The position numbers and the translations under genes are program-made. Under the pieces are notes generated by a model. It did not search any database and was not told the origin of the DNA. It worked only from the letters and a program-made list of their open reading frames with translations. Positions 3,353-16,953 of a stretch of DNA of 16,953 bases are shown piece by piece; position 1 is the stretch's first letter, and each line of letters opens with the position of its first letter. The DNA is taken from the IMG/VR virus record IMGVR_UViG_2529293063_000008; one strand, written 5' to 3'. Source of the DNA: a virus. Lineage: Duplodnaviria > Heunggongvirae > Uroviricota > Caudoviricetes.

Positions 3353-3364
3353 GTGACCAGTCAC
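3353..3364. repeat. Palindrome GTGACCAGTCAC (GTGACYRGTCAC family, copy 1)
   Basis: The same 12-mer occurs at 8592-8603 and as its reverse complement within CCCCGTGACTGGTCACGGGG at 13196-13215. Confidence 0.4.
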
Positions 3365-3687
3365 ACTTTGAGCGCAAGTTTCAGCCTCGTGGTTGTAAGG
3401 TGGCATGAGCCTTCACCATCAAAAATGCATTCTGAAACAGGCATTCTTTGACCACATCGCGGACAAGTAGTAGATAGCTGTTTCTGCAACTCCTTATAGT
3501 TTTTCCTGATCAGCAGTCCGATGACTTCGTTCTCTGAATATGGAACTCGCCCTGGTCTACGCAATACACAAATTTCCCCCAACATACGTAACTCGTCAGG
3601 TTCCAGAATCCAGTCCCGTCTTGATGTGCCTTCCTTCTTCAACCGTTCCCTGCGTCTCCTTTGCCGTTCTGCAGCTGTCAGCGCCAT
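3361..3687 (-). CDS. Small basic protein with C-terminal zinc-ribbon-like CxxC motif (108 aa)
   Basis: ATG at 3687 with SD AGGAGG; N-terminus AERQRRRRERLKKEG is highly basic; C-terminus has CPRCG...C.H. Confidence 0.55.
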   Translation of the reverse strand: MALTAAERQRRRRERLKKEGTSRRDWILEPDELRMLGEICVLRRPGRVPYSENEVIGLLIRKNYKELQKQLSTTCPRCGQRMPVSECIFDGEGSCHLTTTRLKLALKV

Positions 3688-5874: not shown

Positions 5875-6177
5875 TTAAATGGCGTTATTTTCATTTTCTT
5901 GTGCGACCGTGGTCGCACCCTCTCTAATTTCCAGATAACGCTTAATCCAAAGATTTTCTATATGCTTATTACCTGGCTGATTTGATAAATACCAATCGGC
6001 AATTACAGACTGCTTATTACTATCGGGTCGTGTCCTGTAACCGCAAGTTGGACACCAGATGACATATTCATTTCTTACCCCCGAATACCTTAATTCTGGC
6101 TTCGACGGTTTCCTGAACATAACTTGTTTACAAAGGCAGAATGGCACTTCCTGCCCGATGGCGTTTGATGATTTCAC
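5875..6177 (-). CDS. Zinc-finger protein, possibly Lar-family restriction-alleviation protein
   Basis: Two Cys pairs (PFCLC ... CPTCGYRTRP) about 27 aa apart, followed by ADWYLSN, in the pattern I recall for Lar-like proteins. Start set at GTG 6177 (SD GGAG) so that both Cys pairs are included; overlaps the upstream gene by about 50 nt. Confidence 0.4.
   Translation of the reverse strand: MKSSNAIGQEVPFCLCKQVMFRKPSKPELRYSGVRNEYVIWCPTCGYRTRPDSNKQSVIADWYLSNQPGNKHIENLWIKRYLEIREGATTVAQENENNAI
5900..5919. repeat. Centromere-like palindrome, copy 2
   Basis: TGTGCGACCGTGGTCGCACC; core identical to 1606-1625 and 8345-8360. Lies inside coding sequence at the junction of two small genes. Confidence 0.5.
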
Positions 6178-6838
6178 TGCGCTTCTCCGCCGCATTTAAT
6201 AATGCGGTTCGATTTAAGCTCAGACATCGCGACTTAATTAAAAGCCAGCGTTCTTTATAATCTTGTCTCCAGCTATCAATAGATATATTCAGTAGAAAAC
6301 TCAGATGCCTGTCCTGTTCTCTCTCATCAACTGCCTCAGCACACGTAAGTTCTGATTTAACCTGCTGTGCCGCGTAATAAATCAATTTCCGCATGGCTTT
6401 TTTCGTGGAGGCCTTCATTTTTTTAAAGCCGCCCCCCGAATGAGCAACCAGAAAATCAAGCCATAACCACTGACAAACAATCACATCATTGTTGTAGTCA
6501 GGCTTGCATCCGTAGCAATAATAAAGCCAGGCTGATTCCTCGTTATTCAACTGACAAATAGCCCTGCGCCAGCTGGCGCTCTGAAAATCAATATCAGTGA
6601 GCAACATTGATGATTGTTTAAATGTTTTCCCCTGGTGGAATCTAACCGGCTCAGCGGGAACGGACACTTCGTATGAGTTATCATCCCCCACACTGATTGA
6701 CCGGACTGGTTTATTGTTAAACCGTCCTGATCTACCGAGACGCATCTGCTCAAGCTGGACCTCCAGAATGCCACGCTGGCGATAATGAACATCAGCCAAT
6801 GCCGTAGAGACGCAGCTGCGTATATACTCAAGCTCCAC
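6128..6838 (-). CDS. Hypothetical regulatory protein immediately downstream of cro (position of a cII- or Q-like early regulator)
   Basis: 236 aa; GTG start at 6838 overlapping the cro-like stop by 11 nt (ATG 6745 is an alternative); Cys-rich segment WLYYCYGCKPDYNNDVIVCQW. Function not assignable by eye. Confidence 0.5.
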   Translation of the reverse strand: MELEYIRSCVSTALADVHYRQRGILEVQLEQMRLGRSGRFNNKPVRSISVGDDNSYEVSVPAEPVRFHQGKTFKQSSMLLTDIDFQSASWRRAICQLNNEESAWLYYCYGCKPDYNNDVIVCQWLWLDFLVAHSGGGFKKMKASTKKAMRKLIYYAAQQVKSELTCAEAVDEREQDRHLSFLLNISIDSWRQDYKERWLLIKSRCLSLNRTALLNAAEKRSEIIKRHRAGSAILPL

Positions 6839-7049
6839 GCTTACGACTCTCCTTAATCGACTGCTTTACCCGCCGAGTTGTAAAGTCACTCTTCAGCTTG
6901 TAAGCAGTACGAACTTCAATATCGCTTTGCCGCAATGAAGGAATCTCTCCAGCGGTTAACCATTGGTAAACAGCTCCGGGTGTTACACCTACCCCTGCCG
7001 CTGCTTTTTCAACACTGCCAAAGTGGCGAATAAGTTCTTCTGGTTTCAT
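6828..7049 (-). CDS. Cro-like HTH regulator
   Basis: Start moved to ATG 7049 (MKPEELIRHFGSVEKAAAGVGVTPGAVYQWL...); HTH motif; divergent from the repressor gene across an operator-containing intergenic region. Confidence 0.65.
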   Translation of the reverse strand: MKPEELIRHFGSVEKAAAGVGVTPGAVYQWLTAGEIPSLRQSDIEVRTAYKLKSDFTTRRVKQSIKESRKRGA

Positions 7050-7080
7050 GTTGTTATTATAAACAATAAACAATAATTAA

Positions 7081-7134
7081 AGCCAGCTATAATAAATAAA
7101 TTTTATAGCCAGCTATAAGAAGATCATTTATGAT
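7081..7134. promoter_or_regulatory. Immunity-switch operator/promoter region with two operator copies
   Basis: AGCCAGCTATAA at 7081-7092 and 7109-7120; the second sits in TATAGC-CA-GCTATA with perfect 6-bp arms (7103-7116). TATGAT (7129-7134) lies 6 nt before the repressor ATG, suggesting a leaderless repressor mRNA. Confidence 0.5.
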
Positions 7135-7140
7135 TACAGT

Positions 7141-7737
7141 ATGAAAACACGAGGCGAACGACTGAAAGCACGCCGTTTAGAGATGAAGCTGACGTTGCGA
7201 GAAGTTGCTGAGGCTGTCGATATCTCTATAGCAGGCGTCCAAAACTTAGAACGTGGCGACGTAATGCCGTCACTGGAGATAGGTATTGCCCTGGCTAAGT
7301 GCTTACGCAAGCCAGTACATTGGGTGCTATATGGGACAGAATATGACCCTGATCGCATTCCTGTTATTGGCACAACTGAAAGTGGGCCTGATGAAGAGTG
7401 GAAGCCGGGACAGGTTCCAAATACTGAGCGATTCCTGCCATTCATCAGCCAGCGCAATACTGTGTATGCGTTAACTATCAGCAATCTTACGCAGGGAAAC
7501 TATCAGCCAGGCGATTTTCTCCTGGTCGATTCTGCGCTGGAACTGGTCCCCGGCGAGGATGTTCTGGTTCGTGATACTGCAGGAAATATCACTATCCAGC
7601 GCCTAGCCCGTTTTGATGATGAAAATTACTATCTGGATGGAACAAACTCACAACGCGCTATCTTCAGGAAAAGCGATCTTGAATTTGTTCACCAAATAGT
7701 CGGAACGATCAAATCATTCATGGTTGAGGGTAGATGA
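7141..7737 (+). CDS. CI-like prophage repressor (N-terminal HTH, C-terminal S24-like domain that appears to lack the catalytic lysine)
   Basis: 198 aa; HTH LTLREVAEAVDISIAGVQNLERG; C-terminal GDFLLVDS...GEDVLVR...ITIQRLAR resembles LexA/CI (GDLLAV...VTVKRL) but has Q where the catalytic K is expected. No Ala-Gly in the linker. Confidence 0.8.
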   Translation: MKTRGERLKARRLEMKLTLREVAEAVDISIAGVQNLERGDVMPSLEIGIALAKCLRKPVHWVLYGTEYDPDRIPVIGTTESGPDEEWKPGQVPNTERFLPFISQRNTVYALTISNLTQGNYQPGDFLLVDSALELVPGEDVLVRDTAGNITIQRLARFDDENYYLDGTNSQRAIFRKSDLEFVHQIVGTIKSFMVEGR

Positions 7738-7839
7738 CTTAATACGGGGTTTATTGTTTGCTGTAAATCTGGTTTAATGCAGGGCATATGTTCTGTGGGT
7801 TGACTCAGGTTACAGCAGCAGAAAAAAGACGAAAAAAAA

Positions 7840-7868
7840 CCCGAGTCGGCAAACTCGGGTCCTTTTCA
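7840..7868 (+). terminator. Intrinsic terminator downstream of the repressor gene
   Basis: CCCGAGT-CGGCAAA-ACTCGGG hairpin followed by TCCTTTTC; preceded by an A8 run, so possibly bidirectional. Confidence 0.55.
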
Positions 7869-7982
7869 GGAAGCAGCCACAGTAACGCGACGGATTCCGT
7901 CAATTCAAGATGCGTTTATTGTGGCTGCTCCTGCGGATTTTTTCAACCCGAAAAAACATAATTCGCATGGAATGGCTAAAAA

Positions 7983-10900
7983 ATGACATTAAACGATTTC
8001 TATGCGGATCGCTTTGGCAGCGATCCGTTCTCGCTAATTGAAGCAGCACGGGATGAACTAACCGAGCTGGCACAGATGGCTGGTATCAACTGGCCTGCCT
8101 GTTCCGACAACATCCAACTCAACCCTCGCGGGGGTGTTGAGCGTTACTCTTCATACAATAAAACATCTCCAGAAGCTCTCGAGAAGAGCCTCAAAGGACG
8201 CGTAGAAATTTACTCCCGGCTGGAACACAGCAAAGGGATTGATTACCCGTTCATTAACTTCGTCCATAAAGGCAGCGATGCTGGCTCATGGAGCGGTTTC
8301 TCCTTCCTGTTTTCTGAATATCGCCGTGAGCAACAACGGAATAATGCGACCGTGGTCGCACAACCGGAAGAAGAACGGGCAAGAATAGAACGTCAGGCCG
8401 AAGCACGTCGTCGCCGTGAAGAACAAAAACGAATTAATGACCTGAAAAACAACCAAATTGACCATGAACGTTTGCTGGGATGGCTGGCATTTCACAGCGC
8501 GTGGGAACATGCTCCTGCAGAAGACGGCTCATGGCCATATGCGATTAAAAAAGGTATTCGTGACGTTTTTAATTCGTGTGATGTGCGTCGCGTGACCAGT
8601 CACGACAGCGCAAAATGGAGCAGGGGGCCAACCACGTATATGGCTATCCCTCTGGCTCACCTGGACGGTCGTTACGATGGTCGTATTGTGGGTTGGCAGC
8701 GAATCGACAAACAAGGTGGAAAATACCAGACCAGCGCAGTAACCAGCGGCGATTTCGTCGGTGCCTGCTTTGTTATCGGTGAGCTGAAAGGGGCGCAAAA
8801 CATCGCTGTTACAGAAGGTTTTGCTACTGGTGCATCCATCTGGCTTGCCACGAAAAAAGATAAACGCTTTGACGCTGTGGTTGTCGCTGTATCCGCTAAC
8901 AACATGGTTCATGTTGTGGAACAACTGGTAAACATGTACCCGGCGGCAAAAATCACCTGCGCACTGGATAATGACCGGAAATCTGCCACAGAAGGAAAAG
9001 GGAATACCGGCCTGCGGACTGGCTATGAAATCTTATCGAAATTCAACGATGTCCGCTGCGTCTATCCAACTTTTGAAGACGATCCGCAAATGGAGTGCAG
9101 TGACTTCAACGACCTGCACAAACTACGTGGACTTCGTGAAACAGCACGTCAACTATTTGCAACAGCAAACCGCCTGAAAACTGGTACTGATTTGCTATCT
9201 CTGACGCTCAACCGCCTGAAGACAATTAAGCGGGATAACCGTCGTACTTTTGCCAAAGAGCTGCTGAGAGCGGTGGATATTGGCATGCTAACCTGTCCGG
9301 TTCCTAACAGTCCGTCAGATTTATTTAACATGTTCTGCATCGTTCTGCGTGAAATGGGACTGGAAAATATCTATCGCGCTACGGTAAAAGACCACATTGC
9401 CCGTCGCCTGAATAAAAAGTGCCGTATTGCCCAGGCTCCGCGCTCTTTCAGCGAACGCATAACTGATCCCAATAAACGCCCTCAACATATCACATATAAG
9501 CGTTTTGAAACTTCGGTAATGACCGATGATGTCCTGAAGTACGTGCAATCACTACAGGGGATAGTCATCGTCCGTGCTGGTATGGGTTCCGGCAAATCTA
9601 CTGGATTGTTACGACCGTTAATGCATAGCTCAGAACGTGGTATCTCTGTTGCTCACCGTGTCTCCCTTATTGGCGGCCTGTGGGAAATGATGACAGAAGG
9701 AAAAGGTGTAAAAGCCGATATCCTGCACTATCAGGATCCTGGCTATCAGGAAATAGCTCCATACGCCAGTAAACTGACCATCTGCATAAACTCGATTGTT
9801 AAAAACTGCTGGCAACCGTTGATGCGCCAGCACGACTATTTTGGCTTTGACGAGGCCACACAAGGGCTACGTGCCGTTCTTTCCGGTCGGGCTATGGAAA
9901 ACCCGGTGGCTGTATTCAATACGCTAATTGACGCGCTGGCCAGAACAGAACAACACCCAATCATGGTGGATGCTGATGCGAATGATCTGCTGGTTGACCT
10001 GGCTGAACTGGCTATGAAACGCCGTGAAGAACTAGGTTTACCGGCATGGCTGCAGATCCACGTAATTGAATTACCTGTTGATGTTCGCAACCGCGAAACA
10101 GGTGAGCCAATCCGGGTTTTTTATACAGAAAAAGATCGCATCATGACCGAGGTGGTGAAAGCTGTATCGGATGGCGAAAAAATCATGTTGGCCACCGACA
10201 GCTCCACCTTTGCAGAAGATGTGACAGCCACCCTGAGAATGCATTTTCCTGGTAAGAAATTTCTGTGTGTAAACCAGAAAAACAAACCAGAGCCAGAAGT
10301 TGAAGCATTTACCAATCAACCGAAAAAGATGGTCAAAAAATACGACGGCCTGATTTATAGCCCGTCTATTTCATCCGGCGTGTCGATTGAGCAAAAACAT
10401 TTTGACCGTCATTTCGGCATGTTCTGTGGTGAAGTTGTACCCAGCGACGCAGTGCAAATGCTACGCCGCGACCGTACAGCAAAAGAATTTATTATCGGCT
10501 TTGATAAAGCTCGTGCAAAACGTGAAACTGACCCGCAAAAAATAGAACGAGCATTCGCCCAGGCATTGCTTGCTACCGCAGGTATGAACGGTGAACTGAC
10601 GGATGTCGTTTTCGATGGCGACCGTATATCAATGGGGGTGGCCAATACCGACTTTACCAGGATGAAAATTAAAGCAGCCGCTATTGAAGCGACTGCGCGT
10701 AACGACTACGCCAGCAACATGATCTGCATCATGCACAGCGACGGTTATAAGGTATCGCCGCTGGCCACCGATTATGCTGCGAATGATATCGGTAAAGAGC
10801 TGCGTAAAGAAGCGCGGGATATTGTGTGGGAACAGACACTGGATCTGCATCTCAATACAGAAACTCCACAAGAATCAGAGCGTGAAGAACTGCTAAAAAA

Positions 10901-11978
10901 ACGCGCGCTGACGCTTGAAGAACAGGCAAAACTTGTCCGCTGGGATATTGAAAACGAACTGAAACTACCGGTTGAAGAAGGCACGCTGAAATTCTATTTC
11001 GATGGTGCTCGAGACAAAGTTCGCCGCTATGAAACAATGCTTTTAGATGAGGTAACAGCTCGTCGTTACGACCGGGAAGAAGCAGCCATCAATTTTACCT
11101 ACGCATACCGTCAGGCGGGACAGTGGCAATATTTTGTAGTGACCGCGATGACTCGCGAGCAGGCTGATGATGTCTTTAAAACTAAATTCCCTGGAATAAT
11201 CGATCACAAGGTAAAAGCTACTCCTACTGTTGAAGTCGGGGCGCGCGGTTTCTATGCGCTTAAATCAGCAACTCTCCGGCAGTACTTTATCGACTGCGGT
11301 ATCAACCCTGAGACTATGACCGGCGAGGCGACTCAGGAGCGTCTCAAATTTGCTCGAGATAACCTCATGACAGCCGAACGCCGTGACCTGTTGAATAACG
11401 TTCTGCACATTGGTGGTTTTATGACGCCAAAAGGGAAGCCTAAAGTGCCGGAAGCGTTGTTTAAAAACATTTGCGACTCTCTTGGCCTTAAAACAGGTAA
11501 ACGTCGCGGCAGAGACGGCGATAAGCGTCCAACCTTGCGTTTTGTTGAGCCTGAATCAGCGGCATTTATGCTGGATATTCTTGCTCAGCGTCAGAAAGAT
11601 GGCCTAACCCTGAAAACGCGTAAAGCCGAGAAGACCGCCATCGAAATGGATCGCGATTTGGATCTCAATATATATATGGATGATAAAACGCGATCCACAA
11701 ACGAGCAGGTTCAAAACGCCCCTCATTCAGTAATTTCTGAGGCTTTGGCTGTGTTGCCAGTGGTTGTACCTGAGTCCTGGGCGATGAGTGCGCTTTCCGG
11801 TGAGGAGCTGGCCACTATGTCATCATGGTCATCAGCCAGCATAGCTATGACGTTTGCATCTCTGTACCTCACAGAGTTCATGGATCACTTATCCAGCAAT
11901 GAACTGCGGCGGTTACGTGAATACATTACCGGGAATAGCCCATGCAGCTACGAAGAGCAGGGCGCTTTCTATGGGTAA
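7983..11978 (+). CDS. repA: Multidomain replication protein: primase (TOPRIM) fused to a P-loop helicase/NTPase, N15 RepA-like
   Basis: 1331 aa; TOPRIM-like IAVTEGFATGASIWLA ... ITCALDND; Walker A VRAGMGSGKST; size matches my memory of N15 RepA. Confidence 0.85.
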   Translation: MTLNDFYADRFGSDPFSLIEAARDELTELAQMAGINWPACSDNIQLNPRGGVERYSSYNKTSPEALEKSLKGRVEIYSRLEHSKGIDYPFINFVHKGSDAGSWSGFSFLFSEYRREQQRNNATVVAQPEEERARIERQAEARRRREEQKRINDLKNNQIDHERLLGWLAFHSAWEHAPAEDGSWPYAIKKGIRDVFNSCDVRRVTSHDSAKWSRGPTTYMAIPLAHLDGRYDGRIVGWQRIDKQGGKYQTSAVTSGDFVGACFVIGELKGAQNIAVTEGFATGASIWLATKKDKRFDAVVVAVSANNMVHVVEQLVNMYPAAKITCALDNDRKSATEGKGNTGLRTGYEILSKFNDVRCVYPTFEDDPQMECSDFNDLHKLRGLRETARQLFATANRLKTGTDLLSLTLNRLKTIKRDNRRTFAKELLRAVDIGMLTCPVPNSPSDLFNMFCIVLREMGLENIYRATVKDHIARRLNKKCRIAQAPRSFSERITDPNKRPQHITYKRFETSVMTDDVLKYVQSLQGIVIVRAGMGSGKSTGLLRPLMHSSERGISVAHRVSLIGGLWEMMTEGKGVKADILHYQDPGYQEIAPYASKLTICINSIVKNCWQPLMRQHDYFGFDEATQGLRAVLSGRAMENPVAVFNTLIDALARTEQHPIMVDADANDLLVDLAELAMKRREELGLPAWLQIHVIELPVDVRNRETGEPIRVFYTEKDRIMTEVVKAVSDGEKIMLATDSSTFAEDVTATLRMHFPGKKFLCVNQKNKPEPEVEAFTNQPKKMVKKYDGLIYSPSISSGVSIEQKHFDRHFGMFCGEVVPSDAVQMLRRDRTAKEFIIGFDKARAKRETDPQKIERAFAQALLATAGMNGELTDVVFDGDRISMGVANTDFTRMKIKAAAIEATARNDYASNMICIMHSDGYKVSPLATDYAANDIGKELRKEARDIVWEQTLDLHLNTETPQESEREELLKKRALTLEEQAKLVRWDIENELKLPVEEGTLKFYFDGARDKVRRYETMLLDEVTARRYDREEAAINFTYAYRQAGQWQYFVVTAMTREQADDVFKTKFPGIIDHKVKATPTVEVGARGFYALKSATLRQYFIDCGINPETMTGEATQERLKFARDNLMTAERRDLLNNVLHIGGFMTPKGKPKVPEALFKNICDSLGLKTGKRRGRDGDKRPTLRFVEPESAAFMLDILAQRQKDGLTLKTRKAEKTAIEMDRDLDLNIYMDDKTRSTNEQVQNAPHSVISEALAVLPVVVPESWAMSALSGEELATMSSWSSASIAMTFASLYLTEFMDHLSSNELRRLREYITGNSPCSYEEQGAFYG
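8345..8360. repeat. Centromere-like palindrome, copy 3 (inside repA coding sequence)
   Basis: TGCGACCGTGGTCGCA exact; encodes ...NATVVAQ... within repA. Confidence 0.5.
8592..8603. repeat. Palindrome GTGACCAGTCAC (copy 2, inside repA)
   Basis: Flanked as CGTGACCAGTCACG; same family as 3353-3364 and 13196-13215. Confidence 0.35.
11648..11696. other. Candidate internal replication origin within the 3' part of repA
   Basis: 8-bp inverted repeat GGATCGCG / CGCGATCC (11648-11655, 11689-11696) flanks the AT-rich TCAATATATATATGGATGATAAAA and includes three GATC sites. I recall the N15 ori mapping inside the 3' part of repA. Confidence 0.3.
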
Positions 11979-12891: not shown

Positions 12892-12909
12892 GTTGTGGAA
12901 GGAGTATTT

Positions 12910-13134
12910 ATGAACTGTAACAAAAATGAAGAAACTCGCCTGGTTTGGACGGTAGTAATCGGAGATAAAAAGGGCGGTGAAGAGCCTCATTTTGATTATT
13001 CTGTGGCTTTGCAGGCTCTCATCCTTGAAGCACAGGGATACCAACAAGAGATGCAGAAGAACCCTCAACTGGAACCTCGACCAATTGGCCTATTCTGCGA
13101 GCGAGTATCAGCGGCGGAACTCCCTGATATCTGA
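12910..13134 (+). CDS. Hypothetical protein (74 aa)
   Basis: ATG 12910 with strong SD AAGGAG 6 nt upstream (longest ORF starts GTG 12895). Confidence 0.5.
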   Translation: MNCNKNEETRLVWTVVIGDKKGGEEPHFDYSVALQALILEAQGYQQEMQKNPQLEPRPIGLFCERVSAAELPDI

Positions 13135-13195
13135 TGCCCTCCAACAGCTGATCAGGTTCTGATCAGTTAGTAAAGCAAACTATAAAAACACCTGT

Positions 13196-13215
13196 CCCCG
13201 TGACTGGTCACGGGG
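13196..13215. repeat. Perfect hairpin-forming palindrome CCCCGTGA-CTGG-TCACGGGG (GTGACYRGTCAC family, copy 3)
   Basis: 8-bp GC-rich arms with a 4-nt loop; lies 20 bp upstream of a candidate promoter for the antisense-RNA/antirepressor operon. Confidence 0.45.
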
Positions 13216-13235
13216 TAAAATGTCTTTTCAAATTA

Positions 13236-13265
13236 TTGACGTGTGCGTCGTTTTGACGGTAAAGT
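13236..13265 (+). promoter_or_regulatory. Candidate sigma70 promoter of the antirepressor (immI-like) operon
   Basis: TTGACG (13236-13241), 18-nt spacer, TAAAGT (13260-13265). Confidence 0.3.
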
Positions 13266-13378
13266 TACTTCGCTGCGGTAAATCCCGTAGCCGGGACTCT
13301 CAACCCCGAAATCCGAACGACGCACAACACGCGCCAGCGTGTTTTTTTGTGTGTATGAGCCTGCGCATATCCGAATTA

Positions 13379-13460
13379 TGGTGGCTCAGGTGGGGCAGCC
13401 GAAAGGCTGGCCGGTGTCGTTTGGGCCGGTGTTGAGAACCCCGCTTGGGCTACCACCCCA
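13379..13460 (+). ncRNA. Candidate c4-type antisense RNA (P1 c4 / N15 CA RNA analogue); boundaries approximate
   Basis: About 80-nt GC-rich segment closed by GGTGG (13380-13384) / CCACC (13453-13457) with internal hairpins. Loop GGTGTTGAGAACCCC (13428-13442) is complementary to ACTCTCAACCCC (13296-13307) and ATTCTCAACTC (13466-13476), which flank it upstream of the icd-like start. Confidence 0.4.
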
Positions 13461-13514
13461 TAGAGATTCTCAACTCTGGTGGTAGCACTGTTTTACCAAA
13501 CAAGAGTGCATACC

Positions 13515-13679
13515 ATGTTCAAATTCAAATTTGCGGCAGTCGTTCGCACAGACAAAAAGTCACACATCCATCATCTTTCCACCATCGCGTCATCTGAACG
13601 GGAAGCTCGTCGCCAGTTCGCCAGCCGGTTTGTCCTGGTATTGTCTGCCCGTATTCCGGTGCGCGAGGTGGCTGCATGA
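13515..13679 (+). CDS. Icd-like small protein (first gene of the antirepressor operon)
   Basis: ATG 13515 (MFKFKFAAVVRTDKKSHIHHLSTIASSEREARRQFASRFVLVLSARIPVREVAA); the longest ORF begins at GTG 13479. Stop overlaps the next start (ATGA). Resemblance to Icd-like proteins is from memory. Confidence 0.5.
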   Translation: MFKFKFAAVVRTDKKSHIHHLSTIASSEREARRQFASRFVLVLSARIPVREVAA

Positions 13680-13909
13680 ATCAGGTAAAAATGAACACTG
13701 TTGGCCTGCTGGAATCGTTGGATGAACGTCTGGCTCAGGTCTATGCGCTTGTGTCATCCGCCCATCGTACAGTCTCCAGCTGTGAGGCGTCGATTTATCT
13801 CTCAGAAGCCGGGAAGCTCCTTCAAATTGCGTGTGAGTTGACACACAAAGCACAGGGGTATTCAGCATCTCTCTCGTCGCAATTGCAGCACAATAAGGAG
13901 GCCAAATGA
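13676..13909 (+). CDS. Hypothetical protein (77 aa), translationally coupled middle gene of the antirepressor operon
   Basis: SD GAGGTGG 6 nt upstream; ATGA overlaps at both ends. Confidence 0.55.
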   Translation: MNQVKMNTVGLLESLDERLAQVYALVSSAHRTVSSCEASIYLSEAGKLLQIACELTHKAQGYSASLSSQLQHNKEAK

Positions 13910-14688
13910 GCGCGTTAGCTGTATTTTCGTTTCAGGAAGAGCATCAGGTTCGTGTAGTGATGATTAACGGCGATCCGTGGTTTGTAGCGGCTGATGTTTG
14001 TAATGCCATCGGGATTATCAATCATCGTGATGCTGTTGGTAAGTTGGATGAAGACGAAAAGGGGGTCGGTTCAACAGACACCCTTGGAGGTAAACAGGGA
14101 GTGACAATTATTAACGAATCCGGCCTCTATACCCTAATCCTCCGCTGCCGTGACGCGGTGAAGCAAGGCACAACAGCTTGGCGGTTTCGCAAATGGGTAA
14201 CGAACGAAGTCTTGCCCTCTATTCGCAAAAATGGAGAGTACGTTTACGTCGAGCCAGAGCCAATGCGAGCAGCAGAGCCGTTGAACTGGAGGCAGAAAGA
14301 GTATCTGCGAGGGCTGATTAACGATATTGCACAAAGTTTTCAATACCGAAATGCCTGGATTAGCGGTGTATGGTTGGCTTTGCGTCGGGCGTGTCGTAAT
14401 CCATCCCCGAACCCCATAACTGTTGATGATTTGCCAGCAATTACGGCAGAACTGCGCCGGATTTTGACGGCTGCTGAGTCGGCATTGGGGAACATGCGCA
14501 CGTATGAACGAGAGTTGTTGCGTGATGTTGTTCGTGGTGGTAGGCGGAGTATGTCGTGTGGTGATTTGCCCATCACCGATATCAACTCTGATCTGGAAAA
14601 GGCGTTACCCGCGCATTTTGAACTGGCAGTTCAAAAACTTGAGCAGTTATCCGCGCAGCTAAAGCCAGCAGAAATCACCAATAAATAG
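13906..14688 (+). CDS. Phage antirepressor with N-terminal Bro-N/AntA-type domain
   Basis: 260 aa; SD AAGGAGG; N-terminal FSFQEEHQVRVVMINGDPWFVAADVCNAIGIINHRDAVGKLDEDEKG...IINESGLYTLILRCR...KWVTNEVLPSIRKNGEY matches the antirepressor signature as I remember it. Confidence 0.8.
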   Translation: MSALAVFSFQEEHQVRVVMINGDPWFVAADVCNAIGIINHRDAVGKLDEDEKGVGSTDTLGGKQGVTIINESGLYTLILRCRDAVKQGTTAWRFRKWVTNEVLPSIRKNGEYVYVEPEPMRAAEPLNWRQKEYLRGLINDIAQSFQYRNAWISGVWLALRRACRNPSPNPITVDDLPAITAELRRILTAAESALGNMRTYERELLRDVVRGGRRSMSCGDLPITDINSDLEKALPAHFELAVQKLEQLSAQLKPAEITNK

Positions 14689-14823
14689 GGTTGACCAGCC
14701 CGAATTTATGCCCTTCTTAGAGAAGGGAAGCCTCGCAGTCGGGGCGGTGATGTCTGTGGTTGCAGCCGCGTTTCCTCCGTTACTTCTGCCCTTTGCAGGG
14801 GGCAGGCGAGGTAGGTCACACAA

Positions 14824-14859: not shown

Positions 14860-16761
14860 TTAACCGAAATATGTCAGCCATGCTAACTGCATTGCTGACA
14901 TGGGGCTGTTTGCACTGCCGGACCACGCATAATTCTGGCCATTATAATGAAACTCAACAACGTATGAGCCATCACCAATATTTCTCACCGGCTTAAATAC
15001 CGGCTTAGATACAGGCGAAGAAGGTGCAGGCGGTTGCTGTTCTTCTACGCTCTCTTCCTCTTCCTCTTCCTCTTCCTCTATCTCAATTTCGTCGTCATCC
15101 AGATCGTCATCCTCTGACAATTCATCCGCCAGTTCAGGTATTGCTTCCAGTTCTTCTTCGTCAGGCATAACGATTTCTGGAGTATCTATTTTCAGTTGCC
15201 ATTGTCCGTTTTCGCCAACAAATTGCCCCAGAGCATCAGCAGCAAATTCCAGGTATCGACTAATCATTGTTGGGCTAAATTTGAACGCTCTTAGAGTGCT
15301 GTTCGTGATTTTTATAGAGGGGTCCTGCTCTACCAGCTGCTTAACTGTGTTATGCAGACGAACCCCGGCATCTCCTCTGGCGAATCCAGGCATTTCGTCA
15401 TCAAGCTGCTGCAATGCTTCCAGCCTGGTATTTTCGTTTCCAGTATTTGGCCTCCATGTCTTTGAGAAGTTGGCCAGCTTGAATTGCTTATAGTGTAATT
15501 GAGTGTTTTCATCGTCATGGCCTAAAATTTCCATAAAGAAAACATCTTCATCTACGTTTTTCCAACGAGGATCTACGCGGAAAAACATTTCATACGCAAT
15601 ACGGGCATAAATAGCACGACTATCTTTATAAACACGGCGGTCATCTTTGAAAAATGATTTAACCCACGGGTTAAAAGCCTTTGCTAATATGGCATTAATA
15701 CGTCCGTTTTCAGAGCGTGTGTCGTTATCTCCATAACCTTTAACGACATCATCAAAATCAGATGCTGCTGGGCATGAGCGAAGTACATTTATTAAATAAA
15801 CAAATGTTTTTGCTTCGCATAATGTATATATTTTTCTGGTTATATCATCAGAAGTTCTTTTTTTAGCTTGGCCTAAAAAATCAACGGTATACTTACCAGA
15901 AACAGTAAATGTACCTTGATACATAATCTCAATCATTCGTCTTCCTGACAATGCAGCAAGTGCAAATGCCAAAGGAGCCATACCTGAACGAGTGTTTAGA
16001 TTATTTAATGTAGCAGGGCTATTTATAATATCGTAAATAGCTTGCATATATTTAGGGTAATCAATGACCACCACGTTACGTTTCTTATTGTGCAGAACGT
16101 CCGCCCATCGTTGCTGGATAGATGCACGTTCGGCAGGGCTTAGTTGAAGATGATAGAGAATCTCATGGTTAACTTTTAGCTGATTCAACTCCTCAAGTAA
16201 GGCAGATCCTTGCTGTAGTAATTTATATAAATAATCGCGCTTATCTTTCCAGTTATCGCTAGTTAAATCAGAAATGGCGAATTGCCACTCTTTATATTTA
16301 TTTGATAATTTCAATAACTTATTATGACTTTTGTTATCGCCAATTCTGATATTAGATAAATCTTCTGATAGAGGGAGAATTAATTTTAATTTTGCCTGTA
16401 AAGCTGACATTCTCTGGCGAATATCGGCAGCAGGTAGAGAAAGCCATGACAATAGCTCCTCATTATATAAAGGATACTTTTCAGATAGGCGATGTATATT
16501 TTTTTCAAAGCTATGATGAAGTTTATCATCAAACCGTTTTCTGGCCCTGCTCATATAGGCATTGAATGTGTTGGCTGTAATTCTTTTTTCTAATCCTTTC
16601 CCCCTAAACTTTCGCTTGTCATTAAATAATGCATTTTTAAATTTTAATGCAACAGCCTTTATTTTTTTTGTTTTCTCCCCTTGAGGACGGTCAGAGTTAT
16701 CTATTGACTCAACATCGCTAACAAGTGAGTTTATTAATTCACCGATTTTTACTTTGCTCAT
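14860..16761 (-). CDS. telN: Protelomerase (telomere resolvase), TelN-like
   Basis: 633 aa; N-terminus MSKVKIGELIN..., length and an acidic Glu/Asp-rich stretch before the C-terminus match my memory of N15 TelN. SD AGGAGAGG. The gene abuts the terminal half-palindrome. Confidence 0.8.
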   Translation of the reverse strand: MSKVKIGELINSLVSDVESIDNSDRPQGEKTKKIKAVALKFKNALFNDKRKFRGKGLEKRITANTFNAYMSRARKRFDDKLHHSFEKNIHRLSEKYPLYNEELLSWLSLPAADIRQRMSALQAKLKLILPLSEDLSNIRIGDNKSHNKLLKLSNKYKEWQFAISDLTSDNWKDKRDYLYKLLQQGSALLEELNQLKVNHEILYHLQLSPAERASIQQRWADVLHNKKRNVVVIDYPKYMQAIYDIINSPATLNNLNTRSGMAPLAFALAALSGRRMIEIMYQGTFTVSGKYTVDFLGQAKKRTSDDITRKIYTLCEAKTFVYLINVLRSCPAASDFDDVVKGYGDNDTRSENGRINAILAKAFNPWVKSFFKDDRRVYKDSRAIYARIAYEMFFRVDPRWKNVDEDVFFMEILGHDDENTQLHYKQFKLANFSKTWRPNTGNENTRLEALQQLDDEMPGFARGDAGVRLHNTVKQLVEQDPSIKITNSTLRAFKFSPTMISRYLEFAADALGQFVGENGQWQLKIDTPEIVMPDEEELEAIPELADELSEDDDLDDDEIEIEEEEEEEEESVEEQQPPAPSSPVSKPVFKPVRNIGDGSYVVEFHYNGQNYAWSGSANSPMSAMQLAWLTYFG

Positions 16762-16924: not shown

Positions 16925-16953
16925 AATCAGCACATAATTACCCATTATACGCG
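16925..16953. other. Half of a telomere-resolution palindrome (telO-like); the window ends at or 1 nt past the dyad centre
   Basis: AATCAGCACATAATTACCCATTATACGCG differs at about 2 positions from the N15 telRL half-site as I remember it (TATCAGCACACAATTGCCCATTATACGCG) and stops in the CG-rich centre. Confidence 0.65.

Follow-up and report, generated by a model that had tools for sequence, protein, structure and literature searches.

A predicted SopB-type centromere site within the repA gene of an N15-like plasmid-prophage corresponds to N15 IR1

Introduction

The closest described counterparts of the element studied here are the centromere sites of phage N15. Four natural N15 SopB sites are represented by the oligonucleotides IR1-IR4, with which N15 SopB functions and which F SopB does not use (PMC7205306, Table 4). 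A further report places an N15 centromere site within repA (PMC2847241). In published work, N15 SopB binds IR1-IR4, the N15 repA site supports SopAB-dependent stability and exerts Sop incompatibility, and N15 replication initiates within repA; other papers cite N15 as an example of dispersed centromere sites. In the related phage phiKO2, the repA site and two others carry the depositors' annotation "putative plasmid partitioning site" (GenBank AY374448).

We analyzed an inverted repeat at positions 8345-8360 of a 16,953-nt stretch of tailed-phage DNA (IMG/VR record IMGVR_UViG_2529293063_000008), hereafter the window. An earlier note on this DNA had described the repeat as a copy of a centromere-like palindrome lying inside a primase-helicase gene. 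We consider it very likely that the repeat belongs to a set of centromere sites dispersed over an N15-like linear plasmid-prophage. The kind of element is already known, and the finding is an ordinary one that adds little biology beyond N15. Modest additions are a co-variation of the site across lineages and a second site position within repA in PY54-type phages.

Results

Genomic context

Between positions 7000 and 12500, the window shares 98.4% identity with Escherichia phage PhiR46_1, 95% with YDC107_1, and 74-78% with N15 and with Klebsiella phiKO2-like phages. Pfam matches locate a protelomerase gene (telN) at 14860-16761 on the minus strand and a CI/CB-type repressor gene at 7141-7737. 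The last positions of the window (16925-16953) end in ...CCCATTATACGCG, where PhiR46_1 continues with CGTATAATGG; this continuation places the end of the window at the midpoint of the palindrome on which TelN acts, which is the hairpin telomere (telL) of the linear prophage. The relatedness to PhiR46_1, N15, and phiKO2, the presence of genes for TelN, RepA, a CB-like repressor, and Q, and the end inside the telomere palindrome together identify the window, by comparison, as the right arm of an N15-like linear plasmid-prophage.

Elsewhere on the arm, two Rfam matches above the gathering score adjoin each other upstream of antirepressor-like genes: an isrK Hfq-binding RNA (13272-13347, 54.9 bits) and a C4 antisense RNA (13374-13460, 71.8 bits). 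This pair probably forms an anti-immunity (immC-like) control region. An AT-rich 26-bp tandem repeat (7066-7118, 2.2 copies) occupies the intergenic region between cro and the CB repressor gene and is possibly the operator/promoter region of the immunity switch. PhiR46_1, elsewhere 96-98% identical, gave no BLAST match to two segments, 12898-13149 and 14065-14798, and the segment between them (13150-14064) is only 88% identical to that phage. The pattern is that of a mosaic replacement around the antirepressor region, which by this comparison includes a 260-aa ORF (13906-14688).

The deposited YDC107_1 sequence (CP025712) contains the repA-telN arm twice, inverted around the telomere (28021-36551 versus 37493-46299). 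The same inverted double arm is present in the IMG/VR contigs that gave the pairs of loci L025/L026, L030/L031, and L039/L042, and some of the doubled copies have a frameshifted repA or telN. The doubling most likely arose either when the assembly read through the hairpin end or from a head-to-head dimer formed in replication.

The repeat and its copies

On inspection, the window reads TGCGACCGTGGTCGCA at 8345-8360, where two inverted arms of 7 bp each, TGCGACC and GGTCGCA, flank a 2-bp center, GT. The palindrome of the earlier note therefore stands as an inverted repeat with 7-bp arms but not as a perfect palindrome, since the arms are interrupted by a center that is itself asymmetric.

The exact 16-mer occurs three times in the window, at 1608-1623, 5902-5917, and 8345-8360, and these copies account for six of the seven TGCGACC half-sites found there. 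Allowing up to three mismatches, the mean chance expectation was 0.05, and none of 200 dinucleotide-preserving shuffles attained the observed count. The likeness among the copies ends one base past the 16-mer (17 nt in total) and their flanks are unrelated, so that they are discrete sites and not fragments of a longer repeat. A longer repeat or mobile element around 8345-8360 was rejected on the same ground. None of the copies in the window is surrounded by a tandem array like that of F sopC. The PhiR46_1 genome contains five sites, as against three in the window.

The copy at 5902-5917 (no strand assigned) lies downstream of a Q-type antiterminator gene (6128-6838, minus strand; Pfam Phage_antiter_Q, E = 2.7e-84). 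Its flanks are homologous to those of the N15 site at 35931, making it the positional counterpart of IR2, and its phiKO2 counterpart is one of those annotated as a putative plasmid partitioning site. The central dinucleotide of this copy is GT in the window and AC, in the same orientation, in PhiR46_1 (10375-10390) and YDC107_1 (25940-25955), relatives that are 95-98% identical. This two-base change is equivalent to a flip of the center and fits a free spacer, or else gene conversion or inversion between copies.

The copy at 1608-1623 (likewise without strand) is the positional counterpart of N15 IR3. It is found ~20 bp upstream of the -35 element of a late-promoter-like site that a consensus scan detected on the minus strand (TTGGCA, 17 nt, TATTGT; 1559-1587), followed by a terminator-like hairpin on the same strand (1522-1502). 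The layout is that of N15 p52 and its terminator, N15 IR3 being at 41125, just upstream of an annotated -35 at 41162. At 8345-8360, by comparison, neither a promoter nor a terminator was detected, the sole matches in 7600-8800 being on the minus strand and upstream of repA.

The copy at 8345-8360 is carried by repA (7983-11978, plus strand), an ORF encoding a primase/helicase replication protein of 1331 aa with Pfam matches to Toprim_3 (residues 274-383) and Herpes_ori_bp (residues 522-674). Over its N-terminal 300-350 aa, this RepA is ~83-85% identical to N15 gp37. The 16-mer spans the third base of codon 121 through the end of codon 126 (N-A-T-V-V-A, followed by Q). Sequence and ORF thus bear out the earlier description of an exact copy encoding NATVVAQ, which had been assigned to the N-terminal third of the protein and lies, more exactly, in its N-terminal tenth. 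In alignments, the N-terminal segment around the site is variable and indel-prone. Genes for this RepA were detected in 18 of 5426 complete E. coli genomes, plasmid-borne in every case, and in 214 PLSDB plasmids, the majority from Klebsiella.

In N15, phiKO2, and the window alike, a GCGACCNNGGTCGC site is found ~363-366 nt into repA, with two further sites at matching intergenic positions. Reverse-complementing the published IR1 oligonucleotide (PMC7205306) gives the homologous repA stretch together with its flanks. The locus at 8345-8360 shows the TGCGACC-NN-GGTCGCA sequence, which equals the N15 IR consensus both of the published oligonucleotides and of the N15 genome, as well as the IR1-orthologous position and several dispersed copies on the replicon. 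Judged by these comparisons, the repA copy is orthologous in both position and sequence to N15 IR1, an already characterized SopB site, which lends support to the centromere-like reading proposed earlier.

Conservation in repA homologues

We aligned by codons the N-terminal regions of RepA from ten phage genomes, four bacterial-genome loci, and 80 IMG/VR contigs. The site occupies the same codons in the same phase in all N15-type genes and in almost all homologues down to ~45% protein identity (~85 homologues); the window shares both codons and phase with N15, phiKO2, and ~40 other N15-type repA genes. Among 39 distinct N15-type repA sequences, 85% of third codon positions are variable over the first 900 nt, while five consecutive third positions within the 16-mer are invariant. 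If positions are taken as independent, the probability of five invariant third positions in a row is ~0.15^5, or ~1e-4. The sole variable columns of the 14-bp core are the central NN, where the protein residue is V, M, or T, and the only arm position that varies among N15-type genes is the outermost base pair.

A different site is found at the same place in PY54-type RepAs (45-55% identity), whose codons there read T GGG ACC NNG GTC CCA, a site of the F sopC type. In these 16 sequences, 96% of third positions are variable, while inside the site five of six are invariant. The peptide changes along with the DNA: ATVVA with GCG arms (GCGACC) becomes GTTVP with the GGG arms (GGGACC) of the F/PY54 type, and the A-to-G and A-to-P replacements amount to a symmetric C/G switch at site positions 3 and 14.

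Two lineages, L064 and L066 (59-65% RepA identity), lack a site at these codons, where their peptide is unrelated as well, and the position in repA is therefore not obligatory. The whole segment is missing from distant Halomonas-type RepAs and similar IMG/VR sequences.

The earlier note had suggested weighing conservation of the site against conservation of the amino acids in homologues. This comparison favors a centromere: the site is kept beyond coding need, and its letters change together with a SopB motif (see below). Because synonymous positions are frozen, letters and peptide change together, and the site class tracks the SopB helix-turn-helix (HTH), the alignment indicates that selection acts on the DNA site and not on the peptide. 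On the exact 16-mer, the codons and phase shared with N15, phiKO2, and PY54, the published IR1 oligonucleotide, and the frozen synonymous positions, we list 8345-8360 (no strand assigned) as a predicted SopB-type centromere site in repA, orthologous to N15 IR1.

A second position in repA and other site types

PY54-type phages and several other lineages have a second slot at codons ~209-214, used in a different reading frame (TGG GAC CNN GGT CCC, encoding WDxGP). Such sites are located at 30984-30999 in PY54 and at ~3619-3646 in the loci L013, L067, L070, L078, L079, and L080. This second slot is absent from the window and from all N15-type repA genes.

A RepA lineage at ~45% identity (L080, L083, and L093) has an asymmetric site, TGCGACCGTGGTCACA, at the first slot, of a TGTGACC/TGCGACC type; L080 also has TGTGACCATGGTCACA at the second slot. 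The sites of this lineage are at 806, 3363, and 3631 in L080 and at 3363 in both L083 and L093, and going by their sequence they may represent a third SopB specificity class.

The two lineages without a site at the first slot carry other palindromes near the second slot or upstream of repA. In L064 these are TGTGGCCATGGCCACA and TGGGGCCGTGGCCCCA, of a GGCC-core type, at 877 and 3634, and in L066 CGTGAC-NN-GTCACG at 3595 and 3626. They may serve another partition protein as centromeres or may have arisen by chance.

Co-variation with SopB

The window, ending as it does at the telomere, does not include the sopAB genes. In PhiR46_1, ParA/ParB (SopA/SopB) are encoded at 43667-45822, next to the other telomere, and a cognate sopAB is present in this phage and in every paired contig examined. 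By extension from PhiR46_1 and other relatives, we infer that the window's replicon carries sopAB as well. PhiR46_1 SopB shares 74% identity with its N15 counterpart and contains a SoPB_HTH domain, an invariant GSRRRK box, and the HTH motif DRNI.

An alignment of SopB from PhiR46_1, N15, phiKO2, PY54, P840, and F showed that G[V/I]DRNI accompanies GCG sites and NISRKI accompanies GGG sites, F SopB itself combining SRKI with TGGGACC sites. We then paired RepA and SopB loci where both were on the same IMG/VR contig (n = 22). All 22 pairs followed the rule, GCG sites going with DRNI in 16 of 16 and GGG sites with [S/D]RKI in 6 of 6; as the lineages behind these counts are few (N15 type, PY54 type, and F as outgroup), the co-variation is supportive and does not amount to a formal test of co-evolution.

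Literature searches, none aimed directly at co-variation, met no published description of this joint variation of site, RepA codons, and SopB HTH, and a search for PY54 SpyB sites found no description of them. The SopB motifs point to a single HTH position (N versus K) that changes along with centromere specificity from N15-type to F/PY54-type Sop systems. This position is relevant to incompatibility between phage-plasmids residing in the same cell and to linear vectors of the pJAZZ type, which depend on this repA site.

Discussion

In the mechanism that we propose, the phage SopB, which belongs to the type Ia ParB family and has a SopB HTH domain, would bind both 7-bp arms as a dimer. As with F SopB, additional SopB molecules would load and spread from the site, presumably in a CTP-dependent manner, to build a partition complex. 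Complexes formed at the dispersed sites would then coalesce, as in type Ia ParABS systems such as F SopABC, and the SopA ATPase (SopA-ATP) on the nucleoid would position them so that each daughter cell inherits a copy of the prophage. The repA site is written into codons 121-126, in a variable N-terminal segment that tolerates the imposed amino acids. Lying singly in an actively transcribed gene, it could be a weak or auxiliary centromere.

Since the site is embedded in repA, any replicon with this gene, and with the origin inside it, also carries a centromere. The earlier proposal that a site here would physically link segregation to the replication locus is true in this trivial sense, the site and the origin sharing one gene. 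Candidate advantages of the position are a linkage of centromere and replicon, an early capture of origin-proximal DNA, and a modulation of repA expression. More broadly, the 5' part of repA might act as a conserved centromere "socket" across enterobacterial telomere phages, with slots at codons 121-126 and ~209-214, in which RepA is rewritten as SopB specificity shifts (GCG, GGG, and probably a mixed TGT/GCG type) and the embedding is itself selected. We put this forward tentatively and regard it as somewhat doubtful. Were it true, replicon and centromere would be inseparable in mosaic recombination, or origin-proximal DNA would be captured early, or SopB would tune repA expression.

Several explanations other than partition have to be set against these data. 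It is next to impossible that the repeat is a coding by-product, with the peptide ATVVA required by RepA and all three copies of the palindrome due to chance or to shared codon usage. ATVVA is indeed conserved among N15-type RepAs; however, three exact copies stand against ~0.05 expected, two of them lie outside repA, and synonymous positions are frozen only inside the site. Other lineages change the peptide to GTTVP yet keep a palindrome; in L064 and L066 both site and peptide are gone, and distant Halomonas-type RepAs and similar IMG/VR sequences lack the whole segment. A chance or coding artefact is thus excluded by the copy count, the GTTVP lineages, and the frozen synonymous positions. 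We find it highly improbable that the repeat works through a hairpin in the repA transcript (whether as an attenuator, as an RNase target, or by pausing translation) instead of as a DNA-binding site. The transcribed strand does form a 6-bp GC-rich stem that appears in the minimum-free-energy fold, but the local fold is ordinary (z = -1.42, with 19 of 200 shuffles folding at least as well) and the site has no Rfam family match. Moreover, the same 16-mer occurs at non-coding positions, upstream of a promoter and after Q. A plain stem would accept any complementary pair, whereas the arm letters co-vary with a DNA-binding HTH and only position 3/14 switches, together with SopB.

A role at the origin, as an iteron or another site bound by RepA, would fit the initiation of N15 replication within repA. 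It is nevertheless very improbable, given identical copies 2.4 and 6.7 kb away in unrelated contexts, no iteron-like array around the site, and a sequence that is that of a documented SopB site. The origins of N15 and PY54 map to the 3' part of repA, kilobases downstream of the site. Finally, SopB bound at the intragenic site could modulate repA transcription, besides or instead of serving partition, either as a roadblock or by spreading to the repA promoter and CB operators; copy number or immunity would then depend on how much partition protein is present. The site is only ~360 nt into repA and ~600 nt from the end of the repressor gene, and its conserved position across lineages could reflect such a role. 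Related ParB proteins reportedly silence genes flanking their centromeres, and IR2 and IR3 of N15 are said to have a second role, in late gene expression. Against this, the position is lost in two lineages, and pJAZZ-type vectors replicate whether or not the host supplies sopAB, so that any such modulation is not essential; we regard it as unlikely.

If the repeat is the SopB-type centromere that we favor, its recognition adds three centromere sites to the annotation of this prophage, which are unannotated in the closest deposited record, that of PhiR46_1. It also offers a clean natural example of an essential gene in which a protein-binding DNA site prevails over the choice of codons and even of amino acids.

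Comparison with known systems

One of the systems compared is that of the chromosomal parS sites around oriC. According to PMC3597684, these are 16-bp inverted repeats bound by ParB, several per replicon, origin-proximal, and in some cases intragenic, features that recall the window site. They differ in their sequence, TGTTNCACGTGAAACA, in the ParB subfamily, and in the ParA type; the window site does not match this consensus and differs at most positions from published parS probes.

Like the window site, the SopB site of F sopC spans 16 bp, with two 7-bp arms set 2 bp apart, and the SopB proteins are homologous (~49% identity). The F site, TGGGACCACGGTCCCA, departs from the window site in the center and at the symmetric pair 3 and 14, and nowhere else. 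In contrast to F, where tandem 43-bp repeats (10 or 12 by different counts) lie downstream of sopB, the window sites are single and dispersed, one of them inside a coding sequence. Neither the tandem 43-bp array nor TGGGACC arms are found in the window, where the arms are TGCGACC.

PY54 and P840 are telomere phages with a sopAB-like operon (spyAB) and have a site at the same codons, in the same phase, of the orthologous repA. They differ in their GGGACC arms, in having ~10-11 sites per genome, and in the second repA site at codons ~209-214. Gene 35 of phiKO2 (AY374448; Casjens et al., 2004) has the identical 16-mer at the same repA codons, annotated by the depositors as a putative partition site; this site is known as an annotation only, belongs to a phage with a Klebsiella host, and has different flanking codons.

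N15 IR1 shares with the window site the 14-bp core GCGACCGTGGTCGC, the codons of the orthologous repA, the homologous flanks, and the three-site layout of the right arm. The two differ at the outermost base, which is GCT in the N15 GenBank record and GCA in the window, making the window site the more symmetric one. In that record (AF064539, 33480-33495), IR1 reads AGCGACCACGGTCGCA, and the published IR1 oligonucleotide has TGCGACC at that arm (PMC7205306, Table 4). The window phage belongs to another species-level lineage than N15 (RepA ~83-85% identical, and SopB 74% identical in PhiR46_1), and N15 has four sites where PhiR46_1, the window's close relative, has five.
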